Below are positions 33,823 to 34,069 of a DNA stretch of 64,000 nt, one piece after another. The DNA comes from Escherichia coli. GTDB lineage: Bacteria; Pseudomonadota; Gammaproteobacteria; Enterobacterales; Enterobacteriaceae. Location: the NCBI RefSeq assembly GCF_030013595.1, contig NZ_CP122768.1; one strand, written 5' to 3'. Below the pieces are notes generated by a model. That model searched no databases and had not been told where the DNA came from. It saw only the letters and a program-made list of their open reading frames with translations. How positions within the stretch are numbered: position 1 is the first letter of the stretch; every line of letters starts with the position of its first letter. A program made the position numbers and the translations under genes.

Positions 33823-33877
33823 AATTCACCTCCTTTTTAAGCTATCATCGGGTGTAATTAATTCTTTTTTATTTAAC

Positions 33878-34060
33878 TCATGGCAGATGTTTATTCCCAT
33901 CTAAAATGGCATCAACGGGAAAGTAAGTAATGTGTTTATTGTTATTCTTCTCATTTATTTTATCGCCATGGTTATTTTTTAAATCAACCGGGGCTTCCTC
34001 ATGATATTTCCTGATTAACTCTTCAGGCGTAAAAAAAGGCTTTTTTCCGTTTATGTTCAT
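33878..34060 (-). CDS. Small hypothetical ORF (60 aa) between the chaperone and the SipB-like gene
   Basis: ORF fills a ~250-nt gap that in SPI-1 and Shigella is absent; could be coding or spurious. Confidence 0.3.
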   Translation of the reverse strand: MNINGKKPFFTPEELIRKYHEEAPVDLKNNHGDKINEKNNNKHITYFPVDAILDGNKHLP

Positions 34061-34069
34061 TTTGCCGAC

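Follow-up and report, generated by a model that had tools for sequence, protein, structure and literature searches.

Gene content and layout of the eip locus

The window analyzed here, a 64,000-nt stretch of an Escherichia coli chromosome (contig NZ_CP122768.1), carries the eip (selC-B) island, in which eicA is followed by a 247-nt spacer and then by eipB, eipC and eipD (Table 1). EicA matched Pfam TPR_3 (2.5e-17) and NCBIfam LcrH_SycD (TIGR02552), the latter with 114.6 bits and thus above the cutoff of 104.8, in agreement with the PGAP name for the gene (SycD/LcrH chaperone). The score against NCBIfam SicA was 151 bits, below the cutoff of 184, and EicA was full length relative to SicA, its 165 aa covering profile positions 11–161 of 165. 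EipB matched Pfam T3SSipB (1.4e-10) as well as SseC and was full length relative to SipB, and Pfam T3SS_TC was found in the 449-aa protein of the gene row. The product of eipC, a hypothetical protein in PGAP, matched no Pfam or NCBIfam family, and its length differs by strain, with 376-aa and 383-aa forms. The same gene order is found in sicA-sipB of SPI-1 and ipgC-ipaB of pINV, that is a TPR class II chaperone, a SipB/IpaB-like translocator of ~590 aa, a SipC-like protein and a SipD-like protein, and EicA and EipB are equal in length to SicA and SipB. The first-pass annotation had placed some 250 nt and a 60-aa ORF between the chaperone and translocator genes; both were confirmed, the translation being exactly as quoted there.

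Table 1. Coordinates of genes and features around the eicA-eipB spacer, numbered along the window.
Feature	Position	Strand	Description
eicA	34070-34567	minus	165 aa, SycD/LcrH/SicA-type class II TPR T3SS translocator chaperone
Whole spacer, eicA to eipB	33823-34069	minus	247 nt, 33% GC
Gap between eicA stop (TGA) and ORF ATG	34061-34069	minus	9 nt, direct reading of the sequence
60-aa ORF	33878-34060	minus	ATG start (MNINGKKPFF...GNKHLP)
A6 homopolymer	33975-33980	minus	Within the ORF, codons 26-28; origin of both common frameshift alleles
Untranslated stretch, ORF stop to eipB ATG	33823-33877	minus	55 nt, ends in the eipB Shine-Dalgarno
eipB Shine-Dalgarno	33827-33834	minus	Strong, AGGAGGTG
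eipB	32041-33822	minus	593 aa, SipB/IpaB/YopB-family major translocator (SctE)
eipC	30898-32028	minus	SipC-position gene
eipD	29505-30854	minus	

A 501-nt query around the spacer matched 733 of 5,426 complete E. coli genomes with 90–100% identity and, one record excepted, as a single chromosomal copy per matching genome. In strain Ecol_316, which is 100% identical over the query, the upstream context consists of tRNA-Sec (selC), setC, yicL, nlpA and yicS, followed by the SycD/LcrH chaperone and a “hypothetical protein”, after which come a YopB/SseC translocon subunit, a hypothetical protein, an IpaD/SipD tip protein, eilA and iatC. A yicS-eicA-eipB region 99% identical to that of E. coli was also present in a contig of a metagenome-assembled genome labeled “Collinsella sp.” (JAIJJM010000039.1), where it carries one of the frameshift alleles described below (A5); this contig is most likely mis-binned E. 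coli.

The published eip island is the same locus, and the layout in enteroaggregative E. coli (EAEC) 042 is identical. Its description is credited to Ren et al. 2004 and Sheikh et al. 2006 in the papers that cite them (PMC7058095, PMC11068852, PMC4210603), and six genes are attributed to it, eicA, eipB, eipC, eipD, eilA and eaeX/air (PMC7058095, PMC11068852, PMC4210603), sited apart from the ETT2 apparatus genes (PMC7058095). Gene lists for the island name nothing between eicA and eipB (PMC7058095, PMC11068852); RefSeq PGAP differs from the published six genes in adding the ORF, either as a hypothetical protein or as a pseudogene. In EAEC 042, genes of T3SS effector families (ShET2/EspL2, EspY4 and a “type III effector protein”) were seen near dnaA/tnaA in the region 4323284-4341751, ~65–85 kb from the eip island.

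Spacing of chaperone and translocator genes in related loci

The statement of the first-pass annotation that chaperone and translocator genes adjoin each other in SPI-1 and Shigella holds for related systems. Relatives of EicA were drawn from a library of 1.8 billion proteins, a 7-sequence alignment leading to 45 loci with one genome per species, and gaps were counted in the loci of other genera with a translocator-sized ORF after the chaperone gene (n = 29). In these 29 loci, which include Chromobacterium, Pandoraea, Burkholderia, Sodalis and Arsenophonus, the gap ranged from −37 to +70 nt and was mostly a 4-nt ATGA overlap. The gap was 2 nt in Salmonella enterica subsp. arizonae and diarizonae, and annotated plasmid loci gave values of +5 nt for Shigella ipgC-ipaB, +2 nt for Providencia and −8 nt for an E. 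coli plasmid T3SS. The 247-nt spacer of the eip locus, with its 60-codon ORF, is therefore atypical for chaperone-translocator loci of the Inv-Mxi-Spa type, in which abutting or overlapping genes are typical but not strictly defining.

The exception to short spacing came from the closest chaperone outside E. coli among the 1.8 billion representatives, a protein 53% identical to EicA that is encoded on metagenome (Logan) contigs (P0011, loci L064–L067; e.g. SRR22936685_2317). Here the spacer is 172 nt long with 28% GC, so that these loci resemble eip in having a long AT-rich spacer before the translocator gene. They differ from it in that the spacer has no sequence similarity to that of E. coli and holds no ORF of >37 aa, and in that the translocator is only 22% identical to EipB. 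Ancestry of the eip spacer through this closest relative was rejected on account of the unrelated spacer and the 22%-identical translocator. The translocator in question is a 596-aa SseC-family protein with a repetitive “TTGSTAxNIV” segment.

Two further observations were made on EicA-like chaperones. Several EicA/SicA-like chaperone genes of Chromobacterium and Pandoraea (loci L020–L023, L025, L027, L028 and L032) had no translocator-sized ORF within 1.5 kb downstream and may be orphan or second copies. In the ETT2 region, a ygeG-like TPR chaperone of 140 aa (P0014), 49% identical to EicA in the HMMER comparison, is encoded downstream of yqeI-like and yqeJ-like regulator genes on a contig (L068) that ends at the stop codon of the chaperone gene.

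Sequence and homologues of the 60-aa ORF

The ORF is listed in RefSeq as a “hypothetical protein” (WP_001586441.1) and, in other strains, as a “frameshifted” pseudogene; the exact 60-aa sequence is present in public databases (UniProt) as an uncharacterized E. coli protein found on at least 1,000 contigs. It lies between the eicA stop, 9 nt upstream, and the eipB ATG, 55 nt downstream, and the only Shine-Dalgarno-like bases before its start are a weak GAGTGAG that overlaps the eicA stop. A sense ORF of at least 60 aa arose in 1.1% of 20,000 dinucleotide-preserving shuffles of the spacer, or in 0.6% if an ATG start was required. The length is thus moderately unlikely by chance, a figure that is not decisive given that the ORF was chosen by eye from a 64-kb window.

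No significant match to the ORF was found in Pfam, NCBIfam, PHROGs or PDB. Single-sequence and profile searches of 5.8 billion proteins returned only variants of ≥78% identity, truncated and frameshifted forms included, all of them from E. coli or metagenome contigs, and tblastn against the 45+ related loci and a plasmid collection found nothing outside E. coli. In particular, no counterpart was found in the related loci of other genera. The AlphaFold2 model of the 60-aa peptide, with two short helices, was of low confidence (mean pLDDT 60, pTM 0.23).

An origin of the ORF as a fragment of a neighboring gene was rejected, EicA and EipB both being full length and the frame of the ORF differing from that of eipB; searches of the window and of 50+ related loci by tblastn and blastn likewise found nothing. 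A repeated or mobile element was rejected on the basis of the one copy per genome. The 90%-identity protein cluster that contains the exact 60-aa sequence also holds the 165-aa EicA, possibly through a bridging fused or mis-called member, and because EicA is the representative of that cluster a first protein search missed it.

Frameshift alleles

Conservation of the ORF across strains, suggested in the first-pass annotation as a check on its reality, proved to be incomplete, as single-base insertions or deletions disrupt the frame in about one third of the sampled carriers. In 59 full-length matches, evenly spaced among the 733 carrier genomes, the ORF was in frame in 40, shifted by −1 in 12 and by +1 in 7 (19/59, 32% frameshifted). 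Every indel in the sampled complete genomes lies in the A6 run, contraction to A5 giving a product of 34 aa and expansion to A7 one of 29 aa. In both cases the ORF stop moves ~80–95 nt upstream, yet the two alleles persist at high frequency. Of the 20 haplotypes, 16 had the open A6 state, among them the most divergent allele. Further indel variants are rare in public data; in one metagenome variant (P0005) a second indel restores the C-terminal frame.

A5 and A7 each belong to linked haplotypes of their own, which makes them lineage-level variants rather than read errors in a homopolymer. The ORF has been inactivated independently at least twice, by slippage to A5 and to A7, together in about a third of carriers. 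PGAP marks it as “frameshifted” in strains 142, TUM13867 and EAEC 042, all with intact eicA, eipB, eipC, eipD and eilA. EAEC 042, which carries the A5 allele, is the defining strain of the island, its ETT2 is regarded as complete and EilA-dependent phenotypes were measured in it (PMC7058095). That the defining strain has a frameshifted ORF is probably the reason for the six-gene count in the literature.

Polymorphism in the ORF and its neighbors

The region from eicA through eipB was aligned for 20 distinct haplotypes, and 19 further loci were fetched. Segregating sites in the ORF were spread over the three codon positions, and those in the flanking genes (27/21/103 combined) fell at position 3 in 68% of cases (Table 2). 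The codon-position spread of the ORF differed from that of the flanking genes (chi-square p = 2.5e-4), its third-position share fitting 1/3 (p = 1.0) and rejecting the flanking share of 0.68 (p = 9e-6); these statistics rest on 37 segregating sites, were obtained without a phylogenetic model and are of limited power. When the ORF stretch was read in the two shifted frames, pN/pS was 0.56 and 1.24, so that the in-frame value of 0.55 is what this composition yields without selection. Substitutions in the ORF accrue at the rate of synonymous sites in the neighboring genes and with no preference for codon position, and eicA is under strong purifying selection.

Table 2. Polymorphism by codon position in the ORF and the flanking genes (20 haplotypes).
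Region	Segregating sites (positions 1/2/3)	pN/pS	Site density
60-aa ORF	16/9/12	0.55	0.20 (all sites)
eicA	7/5/31	0.05	0.187 (third positions); 0.036 (first and second)
eipB, first 900 nt	20/16/72	0.11	0.240 (third positions); 0.060 (first and second)

Comparison with the most divergent allele (L073) gave 22 nt differences in the ORF (12% of bases) and a dN of 0.10, against 0.010 for eicA and 0.027 for the 5' part of eipB; the ORF of this allele contains no stop and no indel. No nonsense substitution was found among the 37 segregating sites of the ORF where ~1.6 would be expected, which is uninformative because only 4.4% of possible substitutions create a stop. Within the ORF, site density was 0.137 in the C-terminal half and 0.284 in the N-terminal half, and codons 47–54 were invariant among the sampled haplotypes.

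Outside the ORF, the 9-nt gap after eicA had one segregating site in 20 haplotypes. With the divergent allele in the sample, variation in the first 34 nt of the 55-nt untranslated stretch was at the neutral level, and the last 21 nt before the eipB ATG had one segregating site in 20 haplotypes and none in 19. Nucleotide constraint over the 3' half of the spacer, suggested by p = 0.003–0.009 with 16 haplotypes, was discarded when the signal largely disappeared on adding the divergent allele, after which the sole invariant part of the spacer is the eipB Shine-Dalgarno region.

Variation of another kind was seen within eipB, the 3' half of which (32041-32900, minus strand) is hypervariable in E. 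coli and reaches 33 segregating sites in 50 nt; pN/pS was 0.33 over the whole gene and 0.11 over the first 900 nt, a pattern suggestive of recombination in, or diversifying selection on, the C-terminal part of the translocator.

Interpretation of the spacer and its ORF

Judged on sequence comparison, the ORF fails the tests of a maintained coding sequence, in that it has no third-position excess, its frame is broken in part of the carriers and no homologues were found in other taxa. The reading favored here, with a probability of about 0.7, is that it is a neutrally drifting orphan reading frame, restricted to E. coli, in an unusually long AT-rich intercistronic spacer and not maintained by selection on a protein. 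The first-pass annotation had left three options for the ORF, a small accessory protein, a regulatory leader or noise, and had taken a lack of frame conservation among homologous loci as the observation that would refute it. Such conservation is lacking, the frame being broken in about 32% of the sampled carriers, and no counterpart in other genera and no coding signature were found. Noise, in the sense of a neutrally evolving ORF, is the best supported of the three, with nothing positive in favor of a regulatory leader.

A genuine small gene would make the ORF the seventh of the eip island. Its product, with translation coupled to that of eicA, could be a T3SS substrate that evolves fast or could assist EicA/EipB as a cofactor; selection on it would be relaxed or diversifying, and frameshifts would have removed it from some lineages in the course of ETT2/eip attrition, a process known for ETT2-related loci (PMC7058095). 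The ORF takes up the gap in the way expected of an operon gene, with its ATG just past the eicA stop, it is of a length seldom reached in shuffled spacers, and it is listed as a protein by both PGAP and UniProt. The open frame is the majority state, is apparently ancestral and is kept in the most divergent allele, and the lower polymorphism of the C-terminal half, the invariant codons 47–54 and the second indel that restores the C-terminal frame in the metagenome variant all point in the same direction. A fast-evolving secreted peptide could, moreover, mimic neutrality. Against these points, the ORF shows no third-position excess and a pN/pS equal to that of the out-of-frame control, homologues were not found outside E. 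coli, the Shine-Dalgarno is weak and the structure prediction is of low confidence. The frame is also broken in EAEC 042, the very strain whose ETT2/eip is regarded as complete (PMC7058095). On balance a seventh gene is considered rather unlikely. A more specific form of the idea, in which the ORF encodes a young E. coli-specific small protein of eip/ETT2, coupled to eicA and either acting with EicA-EipB or secreted, with a codon signature masked by the speed of its evolution and a heritable on/off polymorphism among lineages provided by A5/A6/A7, is quite unlikely.

The spacer could instead act on eipB in cis, as a leader that sets the output of EipB relative to the chaperone by means of an internal promoter or operator, an RNA structure or an upstream ORF. 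Consistent with this, a long spacer is peculiar to the eip lineage among its relatives and the closest chaperone relative has one as well, the eipB ATG is preceded by 21 nt with almost no variation, and a hairpin is possible in which UUACACC pairs with GGUGAAU of the Shine-Dalgarno region. The spacer of that closest relative, however, has no sequence in common with the eip spacer, and outside the Shine-Dalgarno region the eip spacer varies at the neutral, third-position rate. Rfam gave 0 matches in the spacer at E ≤1, fold energies were no better than those of shuffled sequences (z = −0.67 for 291 nt and −0.30 for 86 nt), and consensus scans found no sigma-70-like or terminator-like site on the sense strand of the spacer and no site resembling an MxiE or InvF box, sites for EilA being undefined. 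The relocation of the ORF stop in the frequent A5 and A7 alleles also argues against this reading, and a cis-regulatory leader is regarded as quite unlikely. Far less credible still is the idea that the eicA UGA is read through or recoded, so that the ORF would extend EicA at its C terminus to a product of 229 aa. The ORF shares the frame of eicA (34567 − 34060 = 507 = 3 × 169), separated from it by TGA GTC GGC AAA only, and the 90% protein cluster has the odd feature of containing both 60-aa and 165-aa sequences. An in-frame arrangement nevertheless has a chance of 1 in 3, EicA is already full length relative to SicA, Rfam revealed no SECIS or other recoding element, and UGA followed by G terminates translation efficiently in E. 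coli. Read-through is opposed as well by the frameshift alleles and by the lack of coding constraint. A selenocysteine or read-through extension, prompted by the shared frame and the nearby selC, was accordingly set aside in the absence of a supporting signal, and the in-frame position was treated as coincidence.

Lineage-restricted orphan ORFs and decaying small genes occur in horizontally acquired, AT-rich islands. The ORF has in common with such orphans its restriction to one species, AT-richness, lack of homologues, neutral evolution, frameshifts in a homopolymer and existence in automatic annotation only, but it is unusually well placed compared with a typical orphan, lying directly past the stop of an operon gene on the same strand. 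As a neutrally drifting frame it may have originated as an accidental open frame in a spacer rich in Lys and Asn codons, or as the last remnant of a gene imported with the island. Because its ATG follows the eicA stop by only 9 nt on the same strand, incidental translation is plausible; ribosomes leaving eicA may translate it at some level, and the peptide would then be dispensable. The functional content of the spacer would be essentially the strong Shine-Dalgarno region of eipB, which would let eipB initiate independently. The 4-nt overlap or few-nt gap of the related loci allows translational coupling, and translation of EipB would be uncoupled from that of EicA at the eip locus.

Implications for the eip island

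On present evidence the eip island should not be credited with a seventh gene on the strength of the RefSeq “hypothetical protein” between eicA and eipB, a result that tidies the annotation of a cryptic virulence-related island of E. coli. Were the small-gene reading true, a secretion-system operon would here have given rise to a small gene of very recent origin. At eip, 247 nt lie between the chaperone and translocator cistrons, which is not the case in SPI-1, Shigella or some 30 other relatives, and with eipB having a strong ribosome-binding site of its own, synthesis of the chaperone and of the translocator may be uncoupled there.
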